DNA of 44,314 bases, from the IMG/VR virus record IMGVR_UViG_2579778807_000004; one strand, given 5' to 3'. Every line of letters starts with the position of its first letter. Position 1 is the stretch's first letter. The notes beneath the pieces were generated by a model. The model was given only the letters and a program-made list of their open reading frames with translations. It made no database searches and was not told the DNA's origin. The position numbers were made by a program, and so were the translations under genes. Below, in pieces: positions 1,760 through 28,546 of the stretch. Source of the DNA: a virus. Taxonomy: Duplodnaviria; Heunggongvirae; Uroviricota; Caudoviricetes.

Positions 1760-4700
1760 TATGCAAGCCTCACAATATAGTTAAATGCGATGTTTTTGAC
1801 GGTGTTTTCCGCGTTACCAGCAGCGTTAACGGTGATGGTGTGTCCATGTGAGCCAATCGCAACCGAGTGCGTATGAGCACCAATACCGACAGTATGTGCG
1901 TGTGCACCTGCGCTTGCAGCAGTGCCGGACAGTGAGTGGGTATGTGCGCCAGCAGATGATGTTGCATAGTTTTGATTATGCACAACAGACAATCTTGTTG
2001 ATGCACTACCAGCACCGGAGTTAGCACTAGCCGTGTTCACGTTGGCTAGTGAGTGTGTGTGTGCTCCAGCCGAGTTTGTAGAGCCGCTCACACTGTGTGT
2101 GTGTGCCCCGGTGTTATTCGTAGATTTAGTGCCGTAATCAAACGACGATGTGGTTTTCGTACCCAAATCCGTACTTGATGCGCTGGCGCTGTGGGTGTGC
2201 GATTTAATGCCGTCCTGTTCCTGAGACAATACGGCACGACCACTGGCGGGCTTGCCCTTAATCGTCCAGCCACGCATATCAGGGATCACGCCTGACGGAT
2301 AAGCAACTGCAAGTTTCGGGTATGCAGATTTGTCAAAAGTCTGCCCCTGCATCAGGGCATAACCAGACGGAACGGTATCTGATGGCCACGGAATTGGTGC
2401 GCCAACTGGGTAGCTTTCTGGTGGAAGATTTTTCGAGGTATAAACTTCTGCCCAGTCTTCCTCAAAACCATAACCGTCTCTTGAAGAACGGTAGAACAGA
2501 CCACCATTTCTGTAATGCGCCTTCATCTGCAGGGTCCGGCAACTTCCGACTCCGGTATAGAAGTTAACCAGAATATAGCTGTCGCCAGAGCGGGTGACAT
2601 TGTAAGCGCCTGATTCGGCATTCCATGGAACGCCACCATCCGCATCGGCATATGTATCCGTTGCCCTTCTGGCAAAAGCAGCCACATGCGCGGCGGTTAA
2701 AGTAATATCTTTGGAACCATCAAACTCAACACCAGAAACCAGTCTTGGCGTTTGCAGCTTTGTTGCTGTTAATGCATTACCGTTCAGACTTGCGGACAGT
2801 TTGGTTCCAATAACCAGTTCGCCGGTTGCGTTATCAATAGCAAACGGTCTTAATGTATTCCAGCCACCATAAACATCACCTTGATTGGTAAGCAGCAGGT
2901 AAGTTTTAGCGCCATCATTACGCCATAATGCACCATACTCCCCACCTATCATTCGAATCTGATTACCACCACGCGCTACAATTTCGTCTGTGGCAAAAAG
3001 TTTTTTGCACGACAAGTTATCGTTAACGATTAACGAATGAGACTCATAAAAACCACGCCCACTCTTAAAATCAAGGATAACGTCCGCCGCGATACATTCA
3101 GTCGCCGGATTTGTTGCCCCAAACTTATAGGTCGTATCATTAACAACGAGATCAGCACCAGGTGCGGATATTGACAGGCCATCTTCAATAAACGCAAAAA
3201 CAGGGAAAGCAGCGCCATCAACATAGAACACAGAGCGCAAATCATCGCCCTTATTACTCATCATTATTGAGTGAATGGCTCGTTCATTGTTTTGATATTG
3301 CCAGAACATGCCATAAGCATAACGCCCCCTGTCAGTCCAGCCACCAGGCATAACAAATCCGTTAAACTCGCAGTTATTCATCGGATCGCCTGCGGTTCGC
3401 GTTGCCGTGGTGATAATGACTCTTGATGCCAGTTCGCTTACTGAGCCAGCAGAACGCATAACAACAACAGGGTAATATTTTCCAGATGTTGCACCTGCAG
3501 GAGCGTTAACCCGCACATAACGCATACCACGCTTATCAGCAAAGTCTGTTTTACTGACCGCGTTAATGTTGTTCAGGAAGCATCCCTTATCGGGTATATC
3601 AGCGCCGTTCTGGTCTTTCTGCAGACGTTTCTCTGCATTGTCATAGGCTGATTTTACTGCCTTTGGCGTTGCCGCCAGCGTTTCAGACGTACTGTTGGTC
3701 GCACTGCTGAGCTGTACTATCCCCTTTTTCGTCGTACTTGCATCCTCAAGCGCCACGGCGGATGCAATATCCTCTGCCCGTTTTGCCGCTGTCTCGGCGC
3801 GCGTTGCCGCGGATTCCGCCGTACTTTTGCTCTGTGCTGCCGCCGTCGCACTGCCAGCTGCCTCTGTCGCCTTCGTGGATGCTGTCGTGGCGCTGCCCTT
3901 CGCTGCGGACGCTTGTCTGGTCGCCTCATCTTTTGAAGCAGACGCCGATGATGCCGATGACGCCGCCGAACTGGCGGACGATGCGGCAGCCGTTTTTGAG
4001 GATTCTGCGCTGGTTTCCGACGCTTTCGCGTTCGTCTCGGATGTCTTCGCTGCGGAAGCAGACCTCGCTGCTGCGCTGGCCTGTTCAGTGGCTTCGCCAG
4101 CCTTCGTTGTGGCTGTTGAAGCAGACGATGCGGCACTTTCTGCCGATTTTCCGGCGGCGGTGGCACTGGCTGAGGCCTGCCCGGCACTTGTTGACGCGGC
4201 ACTGGCAGACGACGCAGCCGCTGTTTTTGAGCCTGCCGCAGCCGAGGCGCTCTGTCCCGCTGCCGTTTCAGAAGACCTGGCGTTTGTCTCAGACGTCTTT
4301 GCCGCCTTCGCGGAATTGCCTGCCGCCGTTGCCGAGGAAGCGGCACTACTGGCGCTTGATGATGCGTTCGTTTCTGATGATTTCGCTGCCTCTTTTGAGG
4401 CCGCCGCATCCCGGGCTGAGGTGGCTGCTTCTGACGCCTTCGTGGTCGCGGCGGATGCAGAAGTGGCTGCTGATTGTTGTGACGCTGCCGCATTCGTTTC
4501 TGACGTTTTCGCCGCAGCGGCACTGGTAGCTGCCGCGCTTTTTGAGGACTCTGCAGCAGCAGCACTTTTCGATGCTTCACTGGCCTTTGTTGATGCCGTT
4601 CCTGCGCTGGAAGATGCTGACTGAGCCGACGACGCGGCCTGTCCGGCTGACGTGCTGGCTGCGCGTGCTGAGCCTGCAGCATCAGTCGCATGGGTTGCCG

Positions 4701-5121
4701 CCTCACGTGCTGATGTGCCGGCATCGCTGGCTGACTTCTTCGCGGCTGCCGTGTTCTGTGCCACCGCGGACGCGTTACGCGCCACCTCTTCCACCATCAG
4801 TTCAAAACGGCGCAGTGCCTCAGGACGGGCATCATCCTCCGTCATGGCACCGAGAAAATCATTCAGCGTACCGGGTCGGGAATCTTCATACACGGTGATG
4901 GTCCCGGCATGTGACGGCGGGAATCCCTCCACCAACAGAATAACGCTGTACTGCCCGTACTCAACGTCCATGCTGTAACGCCCGGCTTCATCCGGATTTT
5001 CTGAGGCCAGCGTGTTTACCACCACCGTGGTGCTGTTACGTTTTGCTTTCAGCTGGATTGTGCAGTTCTGTACCGGTTTTCCTGTGCCGTCTTTCAGTAC
5101 ACCTGAAATCTTTACTGCCAT
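1759..5121 (-). CDS. stf: Side tail fiber protein (mosaic; lambda-like N- and C-termini, different central domain)
   Basis: [26 protein letters not shown]... matches lambda Stf; long Ala/Ser/Thr-rich repeat; [26 protein letters not shown] motif; C-terminal GAHTHS His-rich repeats. Start set at third codon (ORF track extends to 5127). Confidence 0.9.
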
Positions 5122-17987: not shown

Positions 17988-19946
17988 TTACGCCGTACAT
18001 TTCACCAGACCGCGGTGATCAACTGGCGCGACACCGGCGTCAATACGCACTTTCGTTGTCACGCCATCCACACTGAAGCCCTCCATCTGATCAATATATG
18101 GCGTATCCACACCGTTGAGATAAGCCACTTCAATCGTATCGGAGCCTTTTGACGCAGCCAGGTAGAAGGTGGTCTGGCTGTTATCATCAAGACGAGGCTC
18201 TGCAATAACGGTCGCAAAATCTTTCACCGGGTTAATAATACCGGCGTTAATGTCAGCCCCCTTGACACTTGAGGAGCGAATGACCTGGTTAGCAACAGAC
18301 TCCATCGCCGTCGGTACCAGTACGAACGCAGGACGAATATTCAGATGACGCTCCCCCTCTTTCTGAACGCGCATCAACTGGCGGGCTTTATCCAGCGATG
18401 CCACGTCCATTGCAGCGCTCTCCAGTACGTTTGCATGTTTCGCTTTATCGAACAGACTTACATTATCTGTGGAGATTTTCGGGTTAGACGTCAGAATGGC
18501 ATAAACCAGATCGGCAATAGTGGATTTCGCCGCACGGCCCAGCTTCATCGGGACATCGGTCAGCATATTCAGATCATCATTGATAATGGCCTGACGGGTG
18601 ATACTGAACAGCTCGCCATAGGTCGCCAGTGCAATAGTGGCCTGTTTATCTCCGGTGGTGACGTATTTATATTCCGCCCCTTCACGCACCTGACGCAGAG
18701 CACTGAAGCCCCCCATACCCACACGATGGGCAATTTTAAAATCAGACAACTGACCTTTCCGCGTCCACTGTTCATAGGTTTCAGGGGCATCTTCCCAGCC
18801 CTGCAGAATGGCTTTGTTCGCAACATCCAGCAGAATATTACCGAAGTCAGACGTACTGTGTGTGAACGCCGCACCGACCATCTGCATCGGGTTATAACCG
18901 GAAACCCCAATACCCCGTTCAGTCAGTGACATACGGGCATATTCACGCAGGGTCATCCCGTTGTAGACATTATCACGTTCGGTTTTTTCAAATCCGGCAC
19001 GCGCCATCAGCGCCTGGCGGATCCCGTCCCCCACAAAATTACCGTTACCGGCATAAATATGAGCCGGGGTATTTTTATTGGATGGCGTGGACTCGCGCCC
19101 CATCTCGTTCAACAACTTTTCGCGGGCCTGCTCCAGCGAACATTCAGGATCGGCAAGACACTGGGCCTGCAGCGTCTGATAACGCCCGCCAAACATGGCA
19201 AACAGATCATTAATACCGTTTACACGCGCTTTTTGCTCTGCCAGTACCTGCGCACGGATACTGTTTTCATCCACCACGGGTGCTGCTGCCTGCACTGGCG
19301 TCCGGGAGGCTGCAGGTTCATCATCCTGTACGCGTGGAGCACTGTTGCGTGGCGGAGTAATCATGTTTCGAATGGATTCCGGCATCTTTTTAAATTCCTC
19401 TGTACGTTTTGACTGAATACATGCCATTGCCTTAACGGCTGGCGTTACCTGATCAGCAAATCCATGTGCCAGACATTCGGCACCGGACATCCAGGTCTCA
19501 TCCGCCAGCATGGCAGCAATTTCATCGGTGGTTTTCCCGGTTTTCTGTGCATAAGCGGGTAACAGAACCGCCTCAACTTTATCGAGCAGGTCGGCATAGG
19601 TGCGCATGTCCTCCGCATCACCGCCCGTAAAGCCAAATGGTTTATGAATCATCATGAAGGTGTTTTCCGGCATAATGACCGGGGTTCCCACCATCGCAAT
19701 GACCGACGCCATTGACGCCGCCACACCGTCGACATAAACGGTAATGGACGCACCATGTGTTTTCAGCGCATTAAAAATGGCGATGCCTTCAAAGACATCG
19801 CCACCCGGTGAATTAATATGGAGATTAATGTGGGTGATATCGCCCAGTGCATTCAGATCACTGATAAACTGCTTCGCTGTAACACCCCAGAAACCAATCT
19901 CGTCATAAATATAAATATCCGCGTCACTCTGGTGACCAGCCTGCAT
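17988..19946 (-). CDS. Prohead protease (ClpP-like) / scaffold / major capsid protein fusion
   Basis: N-terminal ClpP-like motifs (IYIYDEIGFWG...HINSPGGDVFEG...SMASVI) then Pro/Ala-rich linker, then ~330 aa capsid-like C-terminal region; no separate capsid gene in the head module; start set at Met88 of track ORF because upstream codons overlap the portal gene. Confidence 0.75.
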   Translation of the reverse strand: MQAGHQSDADIYIYDEIGFWGVTAKQFISDLNALGDITHINLHINSPGGDVFEGIAIFNALKTHGASITVYVDGVAASMASVIAMVGTPVIMPENTFMMIHKPFGFTGGDAEDMRTYADLLDKVEAVLLPAYAQKTGKTTDEIAAMLADETWMSGAECLAHGFADQVTPAVKAMACIQSKRTEEFKKMPESIRNMITPPRNSAPRVQDDEPAASRTPVQAAAPVVDENSIRAQVLAEQKARVNGINDLFAMFGGRYQTLQAQCLADPECSLEQAREKLLNEMGRESTPSNKNTPAHIYAGNGNFVGDGIRQALMARAGFEKTERDNVYNGMTLREYARMSLTERGIGVSGYNPMQMVGAAFTHSTSDFGNILLDVANKAILQGWEDAPETYEQWTRKGQLSDFKIAHRVGMGGFSALRQVREGAEYKYVTTGDKQATIALATYGELFSITRQAIINDDLNMLTDVPMKLGRAAKSTIADLVYAILTSNPKISTDNVSLFDKAKHANVLESAAMDVASLDKARQLMRVQKEGERHLNIRPAFVLVPTAMESVANQVIRSSSVKGADINAGIINPVKDFATVIAEPRLDDNSQTTFYLAASKGSDTIEVAYLNGVDTPYIDQMEGFSVDGVTTKVRIDAGVAPVDHRGLVKCTA

Positions 19947-19998
19947 CCTGAACCAGGAATTATTCTTCGGACTGGTCGTCGGTGTGCTGCGGCTCCTG

Positions 19999-21468
19999 TC
20001 ATTTCGTTGCGGCACTGCTGCCTCCTTTATCACTGGCCGGATCGGTATCAAATACCAGATCCAGATTGCGGTTTTCATCAATTTCGGCCTTGCGCCGACG
20101 TTTGACATCATCCGGATTACGACCACCAGCACGTACCCAGTCTGATTCTGTCGCCGCTCCACCACGAATCTGGATTTTCCAGGCCTCAGCCTCCTTAACA
20201 GGGTCAATCCACGGCATCACTGGTCCGGAATACACCGCGGTATACAGTGAAGAACGGTCAAGATCGCGGGGTAGCCTGATAACACCGGATGCCACAGCCT
20301 GTTTCAGCCATGCACGATACATCGGGCGGGTGACGGCACCAATAAACCAGTCCTGCAGGATCAGGTAGCCATCAGTGGATTCAACCAGCTCCTGACGCTG
20401 GGCGCTGTAAGTGCCGTTATAGTTGCGCGCTGTACTGGAAAAACTCAGACGACTGCCCGCCGCCACGGCACGCAACTGACCATTACGAAAAGTTTCAAGG
20501 TTAGGATTGGGGCGATCCGACTTCACCATTCCGATTTCTTCGCCGGGTTTCAGATCGTCGTAAATAATGCCCGGCTGAATGGTAAGCTCACGTTCATTCT
20601 CCTTTCTGCCATTACCATCCGGTTCATAGCTCTGCCCGTCGCCTTTCCGGATGTACATCCCCAGAGCAGCGGCGATCCTTGCTGCAGTCAGCTCAGAATC
20701 TTCATATTCTTTCAGGGCACTGAGGCGGATCAGCACACCGGACAACAAAGACGTCCCGCGCATCTGGTGCAGACGGCGAACAAATTTAAGATGCAGCATT
20801 CGCTCTGCATCCACTTCTTTGGTTTCCATCTGCCGTCCGGATACGGGACGGCTTTTATACACCAGATATTTTTCGGGACGCCCCCAGTCATCAACAAACA
20901 CGCCCTGATTCAGCCTGTTGCTCTCATCACTGGTCATGGGAATAAAGTCCGGCTCGAGCGCCTCCAGCCAGAAATGAACACCGGCAGAAGGCGCCAGGCT
21001 GTTTATGCGCCCGGAAACCATCTGGGCAAACACCTCACCATCGCGCAGCCAGGTACGAAGCATCAGACGTTCCAGCATCGGACGGGTAAACTGCCCGGTG
21101 ACTTCCGGGCTGACAGACCATTCACTCCATCGGGTGCGAATCTCCGCAGCCAGGTCACGGGCAATGGCCCCATTGCGTAATACCGGATGTGGCTCGACAA
21201 TAATCCCGTTTTTCCCCACCACCCGTTCTTCCAGCTTGTCAAATACACCAATAACCAGATCGTGGTTGTTATCAAGGTAACGGGCCTGCTCACGTAACGA
21301 CACGGCCCCGTACTGGCTTAACTGGTCGGCAGTTCGGTTCTCCCGTCGGGCTTTGTGTGTCCGCGTCGTTTTTACGGCCTCATAAGCCTGGATCACCGCA
21401 CGGGAACGCAGCCTTGCCGCTTTCCATCCTGGTGAAAAAACGCCAATCACATCATCAAGAATTGCCAT
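19999..21468 (-). CDS. Portal protein
   Basis: ~490 aa between gpW-like gene and protease/capsid gene; start ATG overlaps gpW-like stop (TGATG). Confidence 0.8.
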   Translation of the reverse strand: MAILDDVIGVFSPGWKAARLRSRAVIQAYEAVKTTRTHKARRENRTADQLSQYGAVSLREQARYLDNNHDLVIGVFDKLEERVVGKNGIIVEPHPVLRNGAIARDLAAEIRTRWSEWSVSPEVTGQFTRPMLERLMLRTWLRDGEVFAQMVSGRINSLAPSAGVHFWLEALEPDFIPMTSDESNRLNQGVFVDDWGRPEKYLVYKSRPVSGRQMETKEVDAERMLHLKFVRRLHQMRGTSLLSGVLIRLSALKEYEDSELTAARIAAALGMYIRKGDGQSYEPDGNGRKENERELTIQPGIIYDDLKPGEEIGMVKSDRPNPNLETFRNGQLRAVAAGSRLSFSSTARNYNGTYSAQRQELVESTDGYLILQDWFIGAVTRPMYRAWLKQAVASGVIRLPRDLDRSSLYTAVYSGPVMPWIDPVKEAEAWKIQIRGGAATESDWVRAGGRNPDDVKRRRKAEIDENRNLDLVFDTDPASDKGGSSAATK

Positions 21469-21680
21469 CAGAACCTCGCCAGCCGGTACCCGGGATGCCC
21501 CCGTCGTCGTGTAATCAGAGCCGCAAGGCGGCGCTCCCACTCCTGCCGTCCCTGCCGGATCTCAGATAAGTTTTCCATGGTCATCTGCTGACCATTAAAG
21601 GTGACGGATTTTCCGTCCAGCACCGCCATTTCAGCTTCCGTATAACGCTGAATCATGGCTTCGATATCATTCTGGTTCAT
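21468..21680 (-). CDS. gpW-like head-tail joining protein
   Basis: 70 aa; C-terminus ITRRRGHPGYRLARF resembles lambda W (TQRRRGPAGFYV); ATGA overlap with terminase stop. Confidence 0.7.
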   Translation of the reverse strand: MNQNDIEAMIQRYTEAEMAVLDGKSVTFNGQQMTMENLSEIRQGRQEWERRLAALITRRRGHPGYRLARF

Positions 21681-23776
21681 AACCATCCTCCGGAAGTCAG
21701 CCAGGGGTTAACATCGTCAGTTACTGTTTTCTTCCGTTTTTGTTTTTTAACAGGCGTGGATACCGGTTCCGGTGAGGATGACGGTTCGGTACTGTCCTGG
21801 ACACACTCCAGCCAGGTCTCCCGGCTCGCCCACTCCGGTGCATCCGGCCAGCGGATCTTTTCGTATCCATGCAGAATGACCAGAGCCTCGGCATACACCA
21901 TCAGGTCAAAAGCTTCGTTGGCACCGCGACCCGGCTTACTCCATTTCCCGTCACTGCTCCGCTCTTCATACGTCAGTTCGTCGTAAAACCAGCTCCCCAG
22001 CCAGTCAGGGAAATGCACATAGCCTGGACCTGGCGAGTCACGCCATAACGCGTTATTCACCCGGTCTTTCAGGGCATCCGTCTGAAGAAGCCAGAGCGGC
22101 ACATCACCTGCGGCCTGCGCCCGGCGGCCCGTTCGTCCGGTGTTATCAGGGAATGTACGGCTGATCAGTTTTGCGCGCCGGATGCTGTCACCCTTAAACA
22201 GGTAAATACGTTTACCAAGGCCATCACGACGGCAACGACGCCAGAATTTATAGGCATTATCAGTGACCCCGTCTTCACCGCCGGAGTCCACCGCCATTGC
22301 CATCAGTCGCATTTGTTGAGAAGGATCGGAGGCCAGCGGCCAGCTTTTATGAAAAACATCCGTCAGCAGGACATCCCAGTCTTCCGGATAGCTGGCCGGA
22401 TCAATTCGCTGGCTCTCCCCGTCGCAGTCACTGCGCAATGACTGCGTGATGTTGTAACGATCAATAATCCAGCGTTCGCCACGACTGCCATAGCCCGTTA
22501 CCTGAACCACAAAACGGCGATGACGTCCCGCCTGCACATCCACTGTCGCCACAAGGAAATTAACGCCATCCGGCACACTGCGGGAAGGAACTGGCTCTGC
22601 CCGCTGCTCAAGCAGTTCACTTTTTCGTTGCTCCATGCTGGCACGAGGAAGATAAGGCAATCCCCAGTCGGTGTTGATAACCGCCCTGAGTGTTTCTTCG
22701 CTTCCTGTCGCTTCATACTCCTGTTCTGCAGTCAGTAATTTGTAAACCAGTTGCGCCCAGGTCTGATACGCAGCAGCTGGCCCTTCCATCCAGAAACTGG
22801 CGATACGGGAGCGGCGCGGTTCACCGGAAACGTTGCCGTTACGATCAATGACCTGACCTTCACGCAACCAGACTCCTGCACTATTGAGCTCACGCTTTTT
22901 CTCCGCAGTGATAATGCCGCTGCAGTGCGGGCAAAGTAGATACGCCGCCTCACTGGCTTTAAAGGGATCCGGTTCATTACGGTAGCCGGTCATGGCATCC
23001 ATGGCTGGCTGAAAATATTCACCGCAGTGCGGACATGACCAGTACCAGCGGCGGCGGTCACCACGATTGTAAAGGGAAAGAATACCAGTCGTCGGTGGCG
23101 CTTCATGAGGCGACTTACGTCGCCATTTGCTGTCGCAGATGTCACGTCCCGGCGAGCTCTCCACCAGAGTCATCCCGGCGGACATAAATGTGGTGGTACG
23201 TTTTGAGGCCAGGGAGAAACCATCACCCTCGCTGTCGATATTCTCCGGAAAACGGTCGTAATCGGTTAAGGCGACAAACCGGTAATCCGACGACGACATA
23301 ATGTTGACCGAGGGCCAACCAATTTTAAGGAACGAGCCATCCCTGAACGTCTTATCATGGACATTATTGTCGTTACGACGTGGACTCATTCTTTTCTTTA
23401 CCGCCGCACTGCTTCTGAACGTTCTGTCGAGGCGCTTTTTAGAATGCTCGCGGGCCTTATCTTCGGTCATCTGCACAACGAGCATGTCCGAAGGATCGCA
23501 AACGATGGTATAGACAATCCATCCATCGATCAGACCAATGGTCTTCCCTGTTCGCGCAGGACCAACAAAAATCACCGCATCGTATTCACGCGATGCCAGG
23601 CAGTTCATGGGCTCAATGATGTAGGGTGTCAGTTCAGGATCCCATGGCACCGAGTTACCAGCCCCCTTGGGAACACGCATGAATTTTTTAACAGCCTCCG
23701 AAATCGGCATGCGACGTGGTGGGGAAAATCCTGCCGATATGTCCCTTCCCAAATTTCGGGCTGATGAAAAACCCAT
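21677..23776 (-). CDS. Terminase large subunit (lambda gpA family)
   Basis: 699 aa; CPHCGEYFQ zinc motif comparable to lambda A CPHCGEEQY; AGGAGG ribosome-binding site; follows small subunit. Confidence 0.88.
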   Translation of the reverse strand: MGFSSARNLGRDISAGFSPPRRMPISEAVKKFMRVPKGAGNSVPWDPELTPYIIEPMNCLASREYDAVIFVGPARTGKTIGLIDGWIVYTIVCDPSDMLVVQMTEDKAREHSKKRLDRTFRSSAAVKKRMSPRRNDNNVHDKTFRDGSFLKIGWPSVNIMSSSDYRFVALTDYDRFPENIDSEGDGFSLASKRTTTFMSAGMTLVESSPGRDICDSKWRRKSPHEAPPTTGILSLYNRGDRRRWYWSCPHCGEYFQPAMDAMTGYRNEPDPFKASEAAYLLCPHCSGIITAEKKRELNSAGVWLREGQVIDRNGNVSGEPRRSRIASFWMEGPAAAYQTWAQLVYKLLTAEQEYEATGSEETLRAVINTDWGLPYLPRASMEQRKSELLEQRAEPVPSRSVPDGVNFLVATVDVQAGRHRRFVVQVTGYGSRGERWIIDRYNITQSLRSDCDGESQRIDPASYPEDWDVLLTDVFHKSWPLASDPSQQMRLMAMAVDSGGEDGVTDNAYKFWRRCRRDGLGKRIYLFKGDSIRRAKLISRTFPDNTGRTGRRAQAAGDVPLWLLQTDALKDRVNNALWRDSPGPGYVHFPDWLGSWFYDELTYEERSSDGKWSKPGRGANEAFDLMVYAEALVILHGYEKIRWPDAPEWASRETWLECVQDSTEPSSSPEPVSTPVKKQKRKKTVTDDVNPWLTSGGWL

Positions 23777-23784
23777 TATTCCTC

Positions 23785-24312
23785 CTAGAGACTCTCTCCT
23801 TCCTCATCAGGAATTAATTCAGCAGCACAAGCCTCGTAGGATTTTTCCTGAAGAGTGTATCGCAGGTCATCAATGGCCTGCTGTACAACGCCGACGGCCT
23901 GAGGAGTCAGGGCGCAATCGCGTTCAAGAACATCCGGAATTGTCTCCAGAACCTGGACGACAGCCTTTCTCATGGACGAATAGACGATGACTACTTCATC
24001 AACGGGGATGAGTTTTCGCTGCTCCTTTTCCAGCTTGATCCTTTCATTTTCAGATTGGTACCAGTCCTTTCTCTCTTTCGGCTCCATACGGGATGGATCA
24101 TGAACAGAGTCTGCTGCCTCATGCTTCACACTAAACAGGGCTGGCCCGACATGCTGCAGGGCGTAAACGGGGTTCCCCCTGATAGTCGCAGCCACAGGAG
24201 TGTTGGCCGCGAGGAGCCGTTTTTTTACTGTGTCCCGGTGAAGCCCAAAGGCCTCAGCGATTTTAAAAACACTCCAGTAATAAGCATCACCGATCCCGCT
24301 CACATTTGACAT
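23785..24312 (-). CDS. Terminase small subunit (Nu1-like, N-terminal wHTH)
   Basis: Immediately upstream of TerL, ~190 nt downstream of cos-like sequence; start at internal ATG with GGAG ribosome-binding site (track start 24342). Confidence 0.7.
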   Translation of the reverse strand: MSNVSGIGDAYYWSVFKIAEAFGLHRDTVKKRLLAANTPVAATIRGNPVYALQHVGPALFSVKHEAADSVHDPSRMEPKERKDWYQSENERIKLEKEQRKLIPVDEVVIVYSSMRKAVVQVLETIPDVLERDCALTPQAVGVVQQAIDDLRYTLQEKSYEACAAELIPDEEGESL

Positions 24313-24484
24313 AAGCAACTCCATCTGGCAGGTGAAAATCATGTTTATTTATATATTTCAATTAATTGCAAACTGGTCTAATGACAGGGAGAAAAAAATA
24401 TTGTACAGGTGAAAAGAGAAATAACTTTTAATTATCAATAAATTACCAAACATGCTGCCGCCGCCATGGAAATGCAAAAACTAG

Positions 24485-24525
24485 CCTTTTTCCGCGACGC
24501 TCCCGCCCCGTGGCAGGGACCCCCA
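24485..24525 (-). other. Candidate cos site (cosN-like nicking sequence)
   Basis: Minus strand reads CCACGGGGCGGGAGCGTCGCGG, closely resembling lambda cos ACGGGGCGGCGACCTCGCGGG, at the lambda-like distance upstream of the small terminase gene. Confidence 0.5.
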
Positions 24526-24874
24526 CTGGGAGGACCCGACAGCCTGACAACCGTGACGAGCATCTGAAACAGAGCTTTACATAATGGCATGGGGATAATT
24601 CAGAAGGACATCACAGCATGCCCACACAAATTAGTGTGAGTGTCCTGTTTCTTACTACGCGCAGGACTGACGAGCATGAGGGGAAAATACGCGAACCGAA
24701 ATGCCTTATCTTCAGAAATGCAGCCGGCATCCGAACTGGACGATATTGTAAATTCACCTAAATACGAGGCATTGCTGTAGTTGAATTGCAGTACTGTATT
24801 AGCCTTACAGTGACAGAATACGATATTGACTCTGTCACTTGTGAAATGGTCAGAATGGTTGGCAGTTATGGTGA

Positions 24875-25081
24875 TCAGTCAACCACCAGGGAATAATCCT
24901 TCGTATTCTTATCGTGCTTTACTAACGCGGCCTCAATTGCCCTGAATGCTTCCAGAGATACTTGATGTTCTATACATGCAATTACAACATCCGGGTAACC
25001 CATCGAAATGGTGCTATTAAGCATAGTTTTTACACGAACCTGCTCCTGGGAGGGGGCATCAGTGTATTGATCTTTATGCAT
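24875..25081 (-). CDS. Hypothetical small protein (post-lysis cargo region)
   Basis: 68-aa ORF in same orientation as neighbours; no recognisable family. Confidence 0.35.
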
Positions 25082-25376
25082 TTTGTCGCTCCATTCGTTT
25101 GCTCTTCACTTGCGGCTAAAAATATAACGTCAAATCACTCAGCATGAAAGAGTGAAAGTTTCAGCGCGTTTCCCTTACATAATCTGTCGTTTGTATTCTC
25201 TTCAGGCATACCGGAAAGACTAGGTATTGTCACATAACCAATACCATCGACAATCGAGATTTATATCTATTCGGTAATGTTTAAATATAACAAAACCCCG
25301 TAAAAACGAGGTTTATGGGTAATTTGTATTGTTGAATAGCATCTGATGAGAAATTGATGCTAATACTATAAACATG

Positions 25377-26800: not shown

Positions 26801-27824
<1,024 letters not shown>

Positions 27825-27828
<4 letters not shown>

Positions 27829-28140: not shown

Positions 28141-28356
28141 TTACTCTCCTCTCGCAGCCTTACGCCTGTCTTCTTTAATCTTGAAATAAAGATTTGTCAG
28201 ATACGTCAGCATGCCAAATACCAGACTACCCAATACACCTATTGCCGCCCACTGTGAGGGCGTGACTTTATCGAGCAACTGTAAAAACCAGTAGCCAGCA
28301 CTGCCTGCAGAGGTGCTGTAGGCGATGCCCGTTGTTAACTTATCCATGGATTTCAT
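28141..28356 (-). CDS. Holin, phage-21 S-type pinholin with dual-start motif
   Basis: [71 protein letters not shown] closely matches remembered S21; 71 aa; track ORF extends upstream. Confidence 0.9.
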
Positions 28357-28546
28357 AGCCTCACCTCCGCAGATAACGGATGGTGTACACGGTTTGGTTC
28401 GAAGAAGGAAAGAAGTTACATTAGCGTAAGGCCCGAACATCTATTCAAAAAGAAAAACGCCAGCAATTATTCTGGCGTAGCTAAAAATATCGTATAATCT
28501 TACACTTCAAAAAATAACTTTATAAAATGCCATCACATCATATCTT

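Follow-up and report, generated by a model that had tools for sequence, protein, structure and literature searches.

Organization of the locus

The window, by which we mean the whole 44,314-nucleotide stretch of viral DNA analyzed here (IMG/VR record IMGVR_UViG_2579778807_000004), has a lambda-like gene order, all on the minus strand: a holin, an endolysin, an Rz spanin and a ybcW-like ORF are followed by a cos site and then by the terminase subunits TerS and TerL, a head-tail adaptor, a portal and a protease/capsid protein (Table 1). The interval 24343..24874, in which an earlier note made from the sequence alone had placed a candidate cos site within some 530 nt of non-coding DNA, is indeed effectively non-coding. 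Its sole ORFs are of 48 aa and 51 aa, the latter lying across cosQ and cosN, and neither has a Pfam match. Likewise, no Rfam, promoter-like or terminator-like sites were recovered in 24200..25200; the empty promoter and terminator scan is compatible with late transcription through cos.

Over 24730..25100, a segment that takes in the ybcW-like ORF plus some 145 bp on its downstream side, identity to lambda 47719..48090 is 84.5%. Although this block is lambda-like, the terminase genes on the far side of cos are either unrelated or only very distantly related, which places a mosaic joint between the block and cosQ. Among 69 distinct relatives, conservation is 50-80% before cosQ and at least 90% from cosQ on, so that the rise, exactly at cosQ, marks the left edge of a co-inherited packaging module.

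Table 1. Features of the packaging region and neighboring genes, with their positions in the window (offsets marked + or - are counted from the predicted top-strand nick)
Feature	Coordinates	Strand	Basis or remarks
Holin	28141..28440	-	
Endolysin	27295..27828	-	
Rz spanin	26801..27298	-	
ybcW-like ORF	24875..25081	-	
Spacer, ybcW-like ORF to cosQ	24538..24874	-	no function assigned; mosaic, 50-80% conserved among relatives
cosQ GGGTCCT, packaging-termination element	24531..24537 (positions -29..-23)	-	identical to the lambda heptamer (J02459)
cosN core CG/GGGCGGGAGCGT/CG	24495..24510	-	lambda alignment; ends of the cdtI and Tritos records; conserved CG flanks
Predicted 12-nt 5' overhang GGGCGGGAGCGT	24508..24497	-	nicks predicted at 24509/24508 (top strand) and after 24497 (complementary strand)
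Conserved cosN-proximal segment CGCGGAAAAAGGCTAGTTTTTG, +13..+34	24475..24496	-	common to window-type and mEp460-type modules
cosB region, cosN to TerS start	24313..24496	-	position and co-inheritance with TerS
Candidate R3-equivalent TerS binding segment GCGGCGGCAGCATGTTTGG, +44..+62	24447..24465	-	cosB subtypes diverge there
IHF consensus TATCAATAAATTA, +64..+76	24433..24445	+	perfect WATCAANNNNTTR match
TerS, 175 aa	23785..24312	-	Pfam DUF1441 (PF07278, E 4.6e-44); PHROG 141 'terminase small subunit' (E 1.8e-64)
TerL, 699 aa, gpA family, ATPase and endonuclease	21677..23776	-	GpA_ATPase PF05876 (4e-80) and GpA_nuclease PF20454 (2e-86), both full length
Head-tail adaptor	21468..21686	-	
Portal	19999..21540	-	
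Protease/capsid protein	17988..20207	-	

The terminase genes

The conserved start of TerS is the ATG at 24312, which is preceded by a GGAG Shine-Dalgarno motif and is the start annotated in phage Tritos. From the first base of the predicted overhang (24508) to this ATG is 196 nt, as against 190 nt for the lambda equivalent, so that the distance of about 190 nt upstream of the gene that had been proposed for the site was a fair one. The ATG of the longest ORF, at 24342, lies 166 nt from 24508 and is a minority variant found in about 30% of the 69 distinct relatives. It arises because the window has an A at 24342 where cdtI and Tritos have a C, giving an upstream in-frame ATG and a TerS ORF of 185 aa.

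The description of this gene as Nu1-like in the earlier note stands in regard to its position and to a remote homology, but not in the sense of a close homologue. The protein belongs to the DUF1441 family, and BLASTP detects no similarity between it and Nu1. In contrast, an hhalign comparison of a 29-sequence alignment of the DUF1441 type with a 41-sequence alignment of the Nu1 type gave a probability of 82% and an E-value of 1e-5; its 140 aligned columns bring the HTH-like segments of the N-termini into register. TerS of the window would hence be a remote relative of Nu1, rather than a member of its family by standard criteria. A phmmer search of the PDB with TerS recovered no relatives, and a single-sequence AlphaFold model of it, at a pLDDT of 45, was too poor for use.

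TerL is a distant relative of lambda gpA (24% protein identity) and shows a broad range of identities to the large subunits of other phages: 99.4% to HannyBb, 87% to mEp460_ev081, 79% to mEp213, 70% to Fels-1 and about 40% to phage Chi. Its nuclease domain is near-identical between the window and mEp460_ev081. TerS of the window type and that of the mEp460 type are only 42% identical, with a divergent N-terminus and a conserved C-terminus.

The probable cut site and its predicted cohesive end

The cosN 20-mer ACGGGGCGGGAGCGTCGCGG occupies 24511..24492 on the minus strand, exactly as the earlier note had read it, and is unique in the window even when up to three mismatches are allowed. It reads ACG/GGGCGGGAGCGT/CGCGG, with slashes at the predicted nicks, and its wider surroundings on the minus strand are ...GGGTCCTCCCAGTGGGGGTCCCTGCCACG/GGGCGGGAGCGT/CGCGGAAAAAGG.... 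The lambda junction, rebuilt from both ends of J02459, is ...GGGTCCTTTCCGGTGATCCGACAGGTTACG/GGGCGGCGACCT/CGCGGGTTTT, i.e. ...GGTTACG/GGGCGGCGACCT/CGCGGG. The two cosN sequences agree at 16 of 20 positions, and all four differences fall at positions 7, 8, 9 and 11 of the cohesive end. The claim that the site matches lambda cosN except in the center is thereby largely sustained, save that the differences occupy the right half and not strictly the center. Within the 12-mer itself, GGGCGGGAGCGT and lambda GGGCGGCGACCT share 8 of 12 bases overall and 6/6 in the left half, the right half being GAGCGT in the window versus CGACCT in lambda.

The lambda 21-mer has no site in the window within three mismatches; at up to five mismatches about 0.1 sites are expected per window, as estimated from 30 first-order Markov simulations. 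By itself the resemblance to the 21-mer is therefore only modestly unlikely, and since that match alone is only mildly improbable, the case for cos rests on context. It is the cosQ element, the CG flanks, the place upstream of TerS and TerL and the record ends at the predicted nick that give the resemblance its significance. CG dinucleotides lie outside both predicted nicks, 12 bp apart, and are invariant in 35 distinct sites of the class with the 699-aa TerL. In a 30-bp frame, the cosN of the window has seven rotationally symmetric base pairs and that of lambda six, those of both alike including the CG outside each nick. The adjoining segment +13..+34 is almost invariant across the 699-aa TerL class. 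We infer the nick positions and the polarity of the overhang by homology with lambda. The 12-nt end forecast in the earlier note agrees with the cosQ spacing, the CG flanks, the gpA-family TerL, the ends of the cdtI and Tritos records, and 77 of 79 IMG/VR loci considered below. A literature search for GGGCGGGAGCGT returned only unrelated eukaryotic papers.

cosQ and cosB

Elements of the cosQ and cosB kinds had also been anticipated near the cut site. For cosQ this was borne out in full: the heptamer lies 22 bp upstream, 1 bp nearer to the nick than in lambda. For cosB it was borne out in part, in that the region between cosN and TerS has an IHF consensus and a subtype-specific segment at the position of R3, but no demonstrable R repeats. 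The cosB region is at least 90% conserved across the 69 distinct relatives. A phylogenetic footprint of it is uninformative because the 79 loci with the same TerS are at least 90% identical throughout cosB.

Perfect WATCAANNNNTTR matches occur three times in the 44-kb window, against 2.1 expected, and one of them is inside the 185-bp cosB, at a position analogous to that of lambda I1. The cosB of the mEp460 type has a perfect IHF consensus at +62/+64 in the same orientation, with variation at the NNNN positions. The presence of the consensus at a conserved place with varying degenerate positions points to selection on the site. The window-type and mEp460-type cosB sequences part from about +44, together with the N-terminus of TerS. 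In lambda and N15 the R3 intervals are at bp 50-65 and bp 48-60, respectively (PMC9026076). Given that the interval over which cosB diverges corresponds to R3 of lambda and N15, we mark the segment +44..+62 as a candidate R3 equivalent.

A search of the window cosB for repeats of the R3/R2/R1 type yielded only short AT-rich or 9-nt matches, and a 10-mer scan gave 12 matches at up to one mismatch versus about 8 expected. An exact direct repeat, TTTTCACCTG, is present at +94..+103 (24415..24406) and +171..+180 (24338..24329); with one exact 10-mer seen and 0.27 expected, this pair is not distinguishable from chance. As the repeats do not exceed chance, we do not claim R sites in this cosB.

Relatives and the ends of their genome records

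Two GenBank records, those of cdtI (AB285204 / NC_009514, 2007) and Tritos (OV696610, 2022), start with GGGCGGGAGCGT and end in ...GCCACG. The cdtI record and the linear Tritos record thus open at the base homologous to 24508 and close at the base homologous to 24509. Both phages have the cosN 12-mer and flanks of the window unchanged, the same type of TerS and TerL, and a cosB 97.7-99.2% identical over +1..+129; near cos they differ from the window by only a few point differences, whereas their sequences upstream of cosQ are mosaic. Tritos resides in E. coli LF82 as prophage 3, produces virions and forms plaques (PMC9928086); the same paper gives neither a method of end mapping nor an account of how the record was opened. 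The announcement of phage Ayreon did not locate cos.

The same 12-mer is found 196-197 nt upstream of the TerS ATG in 77 of the 79 IMG/VR loci with this TerS, the remaining two comprising one distant match and one other allele. It is also the cohesive end read directly from PhiR40_1. HannyBb, an isolated phage, shows 99.4% identity to the window across the cos/TerS region (24100..25100). Among 5,426 complete genomes of E. coli, 2,106 have a match to a 201-bp cos segment, and in 1,074 of these the coverage reaches 80% or more.

Two records of mEp460-type phages show local peculiarities. That of mEp460_4F5 (LR595868) starts 5 nt left of the predicted nick and, set against its relatives, is without 3 nt (TCG) inside cosN, probably through an assembly artefact at physical cohesive ends. 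In mEp460_ev081, when the end of the record is joined to its start, a tandem duplication of about 100 bp, beginning with GGCTAGTTTTTGAAATTTCATCC..., is seen in cosB between cosN and TerS.

Natural variation of the cohesive end

Vahanian et al. reportedly made a dedicated survey of cosN in 2017. Feiss et al. 2015 (PMC4669245) take 12-base 5' ends as the defining trait of lambda-like phages; in the same account cosQ is highly conserved, the CG pairs next to the nicks are likewise kept among these phages, and differences in bp 7-12 of cosN are common: N15 and phiD326 differ at 9 and 12, and Gifsy-1 at 8, 9 and 11 (PMC4669245). A C11G change in cosN has no phenotype, and the drift is explained there by a functional asymmetry, in which right-side nicking does not depend on the sequence because TerS is anchored on cosB (PMC4669245).

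We scanned IMG/VR with a pattern that fixed only cosQ and ACG+GGGCGG and left the right flank free. At least 127 sites were obtained, with a right flank that is nearly always CGCGG or CGCAG. More than 15 alleles of the right half are represented among the matches listed, the commonest being CGACCT (at least 67), GAGCGT (at least 16), CGCGCT (at least 9), CAGCGT (at least 5) and GAGCGG (at least 5). The GAGCGT of the window is accordingly one of many natural alleles. Again among the matches listed, CGACCT is found only with terminases of the Nu1/gpA type, GAGCGT, CGCGCT, CGGACT and CTGGCT only with the DUF1441/699-aa class, and CAGCGG with both. The string from cosQ to the nick is likewise split by class in those matches, being 29 nt in 37/37 sites of the DUF1441/699-aa class and 30 nt in 67/72 sites of the lambda class.

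Some 30-50 nt beyond GGGTCCT, Stx2d_112808 and VT1-Sakai have only 10 nt (GGGCGGGCGG) and 11 nt (GGGCGGGCGGG), respectively, between the ACG and CGCGG flanks, and their spacer between cosQ and cosN is longer. Their cos sites may be length variants or may have decayed; the spacing of ACG and CGCGG is thus not invariant within the clade.

Several IMG/VR contigs carry more than one cos site. In four of them (L023, L081, L085 and L066), lambda-type sites form convergent pairs separated by only 0.5-0.8 kb, and no terminase is encoded closer than 3 kb. The pair in L023, of lambda-type sites at 4162-4197(+) and 4722-4757(-), sits between genes for a lambda-E-like capsid and a D-like decoration protein on one side and a portal fragment on the other; its minus-strand cos is followed by repeats of the CCGGACATG type and a 114-aa ORF without a Pfam match. 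Such pairs may represent a satellite (PICI-like cos-rpp) beside another element, or a rearrangement. A further contig of 11,983 bp (L035) has three plus-strand sites, near 95, 8230 and 10766. The middle one has a window-type cosB but lacks a TerS directly after it, which suggests remnants in tandem or satellites that carry cos.

Comparison with other cos sites

The window shares with lambda the GGGTCCT cosQ, the ACG/GGGCGG left half, the CGCGG right flank and the CG at both nicks, as well as an IHF consensus between cosN and TerS, a gpA-family TerL, the same gene order and a distance of about 190-196 nt to TerS. It differs in its cosB, the sequence of which is unrelated to that of lambda and is without recognizable R3, R2 and R1.

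The cohesive end of Gifsy-1 was read from NC_010392 as GGGCGGCAGCGT; this direct reading agrees with the published statement that it differs from lambda at 8, 9 and 11 (PMC4669245). It shares the A8, G9 and G11 departures from lambda with the window, so that the two ends are one base apart, at position 7 (C in Gifsy-1, G in the window), and its cosQ is also GGGTCCT. Unlike the window, Gifsy-1 has true homologues of Nu1 and gpA; its cosQ spacing, at 30 nt, is lambda-like, and its right flank reads CGCAGG.

For mEp213/LLS, a 12-nt 5' overhang GGGCGGCGCGCT was inferred with input from Feiss in a 2025 Genome Research paper (PMC12315714), and reading the mEp213 cohesive end directly gives the same GGGCGGCGCGCT. 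These have the terminase lineage, cosQ spacing and CCACG left flank of the window, but a different right-half allele, CGCGCT, and another subtype of cosB and TerS. N15 and phiD326 parallel the window in their documented right-half variation, at positions 9 and 12, which has no effect on packaging by the lambda or N15 terminase (PMC4669245). In contrast to the window, N15 has a simple cosB with a single R3 and a TerL 65% identical to that of lambda; the window has an IHF consensus in cosB and a TerL far more distant from lambda's.

The cohesive end of Fels-1, also read directly, is CCACG/GGGCGGCAGCGG/CGCGGG. Where the GGGTCCT of cosQ is expected, Fels-1 has GGTACTCCT. Its cosB contains inverted CATCATCATC / GATGATGAT repeats around an AT-rich center and has a lambda-like R3-I1-R2 arrangement, which is absent from the window cosB.

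A model for packaging and its alternatives

We conclude that the site is, with high probability, the cos of a lambdoid phage or prophage of the group that includes cdtI, Tritos, mEp460 and HannyBb. By analogy with lambda, the DUF1441-type TerS would bind the cosB region during late growth, probably assisted by an IHF-induced bend at 24433..24445, and would thereby position the gpA-family TerL on cosN. The TerL endonuclease would then introduce nicks 12 bp apart, one in the packaging strand between 24509 and 24508 and one in the opposite strand after 24497, to give virion DNA with 5' single-stranded ends consisting of GGGCGGGAGCGT and its complement. The cosQ element would come into play at the next cos, once translocation has brought the motor there and a cut is needed to end packaging. 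The tolerance of different right-half alleles would follow if nicking there is directed by TerS on cosB and not by base-specific contacts. With a TerL only 24% identical to gpA, a nick geometry identical to that of lambda is an extrapolation; on this analogy virion DNA most likely ends in a 5' overhang of 12 nt, GGGCGGGAGCGT.

The same distance between the large subunits lends some color to a first alternative, in which the site is a true cos but the nicks fall off the lambda-homologous positions, producing an overhang of another length or register, for example 10-11 nt. The interval from cosQ to cosN, shorter by 1 bp in all 37 class sites among the matches listed, and the 10 and 11 nt found between ACG and CGCGG in Stx2d_112808 and VT1-Sakai point in the same direction. 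However, exactly 12 bp separate the CG flanks in the window and in 35/35 distinct class sites sampled, two record submitters set their genome ends at the 12-nt register, and for the sister allele of mEp213/LLS experts inferred a 5' overhang of 12 nt (PMC12315714). We regard a shifted cut as quite unlikely.

A second alternative is that the cos is the relic of a defective prophage, kept by descent and unused for packaging. Many lambdoid prophages of E. coli are defective, and the window itself is a mosaic, with a structural half about 97% identical to mEp460_ev081, Ayreon and cdtI and another half about 98% identical to HannyBb at only 64% coverage. Decay of this kind is very improbable in view of the intact TerS, TerL, adaptor, portal and protease/capsid ORFs, which give full-length family matches, the 99.4% identity to the isolated HannyBb in both the cos/TerS region and the TerL protein, and the absence of change in cosQ, cosN and cosB at positions conserved among the 69 distinct relatives.

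Finally, a fortuitous cosN in a phage that packages by the headful (pac) mechanism, to which the expectation of about 0.1 matches to the lambda 21-mer per window at up to five mismatches gives a little room, is effectively refuted by the precise and conserved cosQ-cosN arrangement and a TerL whose matches are confined to the ATPase and nuclease families of gpA, with no headful-type family among them, along with the spacing, CG flanks, place upstream of TerS and record ends, all independent of the 21-mer match, and the recovery of the right flank by a scan pattern that left it free.

Implications

On the preferred reading of the site as a cos with a 12-nt end, the term variant used for that end in the earlier note is apt in so far as it differs from lambda, but the end is not a new one. 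The drift of bp 7-12 against a fixed cosQ, left half and CG flanks has already been set out by the Feiss laboratory (PMC4669245), and the exact end GGGCGGGAGCGT heads two public phage genome records, standing at position 1 in each. Scientifically, the cos site thus adds nothing new.

A bolder reading takes the right-half alleles and the spacing as lineage-specific determinants of compatibility that limit cross-packaging or cross-annealing, with the 10- and 11-nt variants of the Stx and VT1 phages perhaps being functional. Behind it stands the observation that a lineage with a DUF1441 TerS keeps the lambda cosQ heptamer and the left half of cosN verbatim, while, among the matches listed, the lambda allele never occurs with the DUF1441/699-aa lineage nor GAGCGT with Nu1/gpA. 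Since cosN lies 200 bp from the terminase genes, the association of alleles with terminase lineages may be simple linkage, and we consider the compatibility reading unlikely. If true, it would mean that these features limit cross-packaging or cross-annealing among the several lambdoid prophages and cos-bearing satellites resident together in E. coli.

The site fixes the predicted ends and orientation of a very common type of E. coli prophage, and thus aids annotation and the prediction of termini. It also helps in judging which co-resident lambdoid phages and satellites might have packaging signals in common or anneal through mismatched ends.
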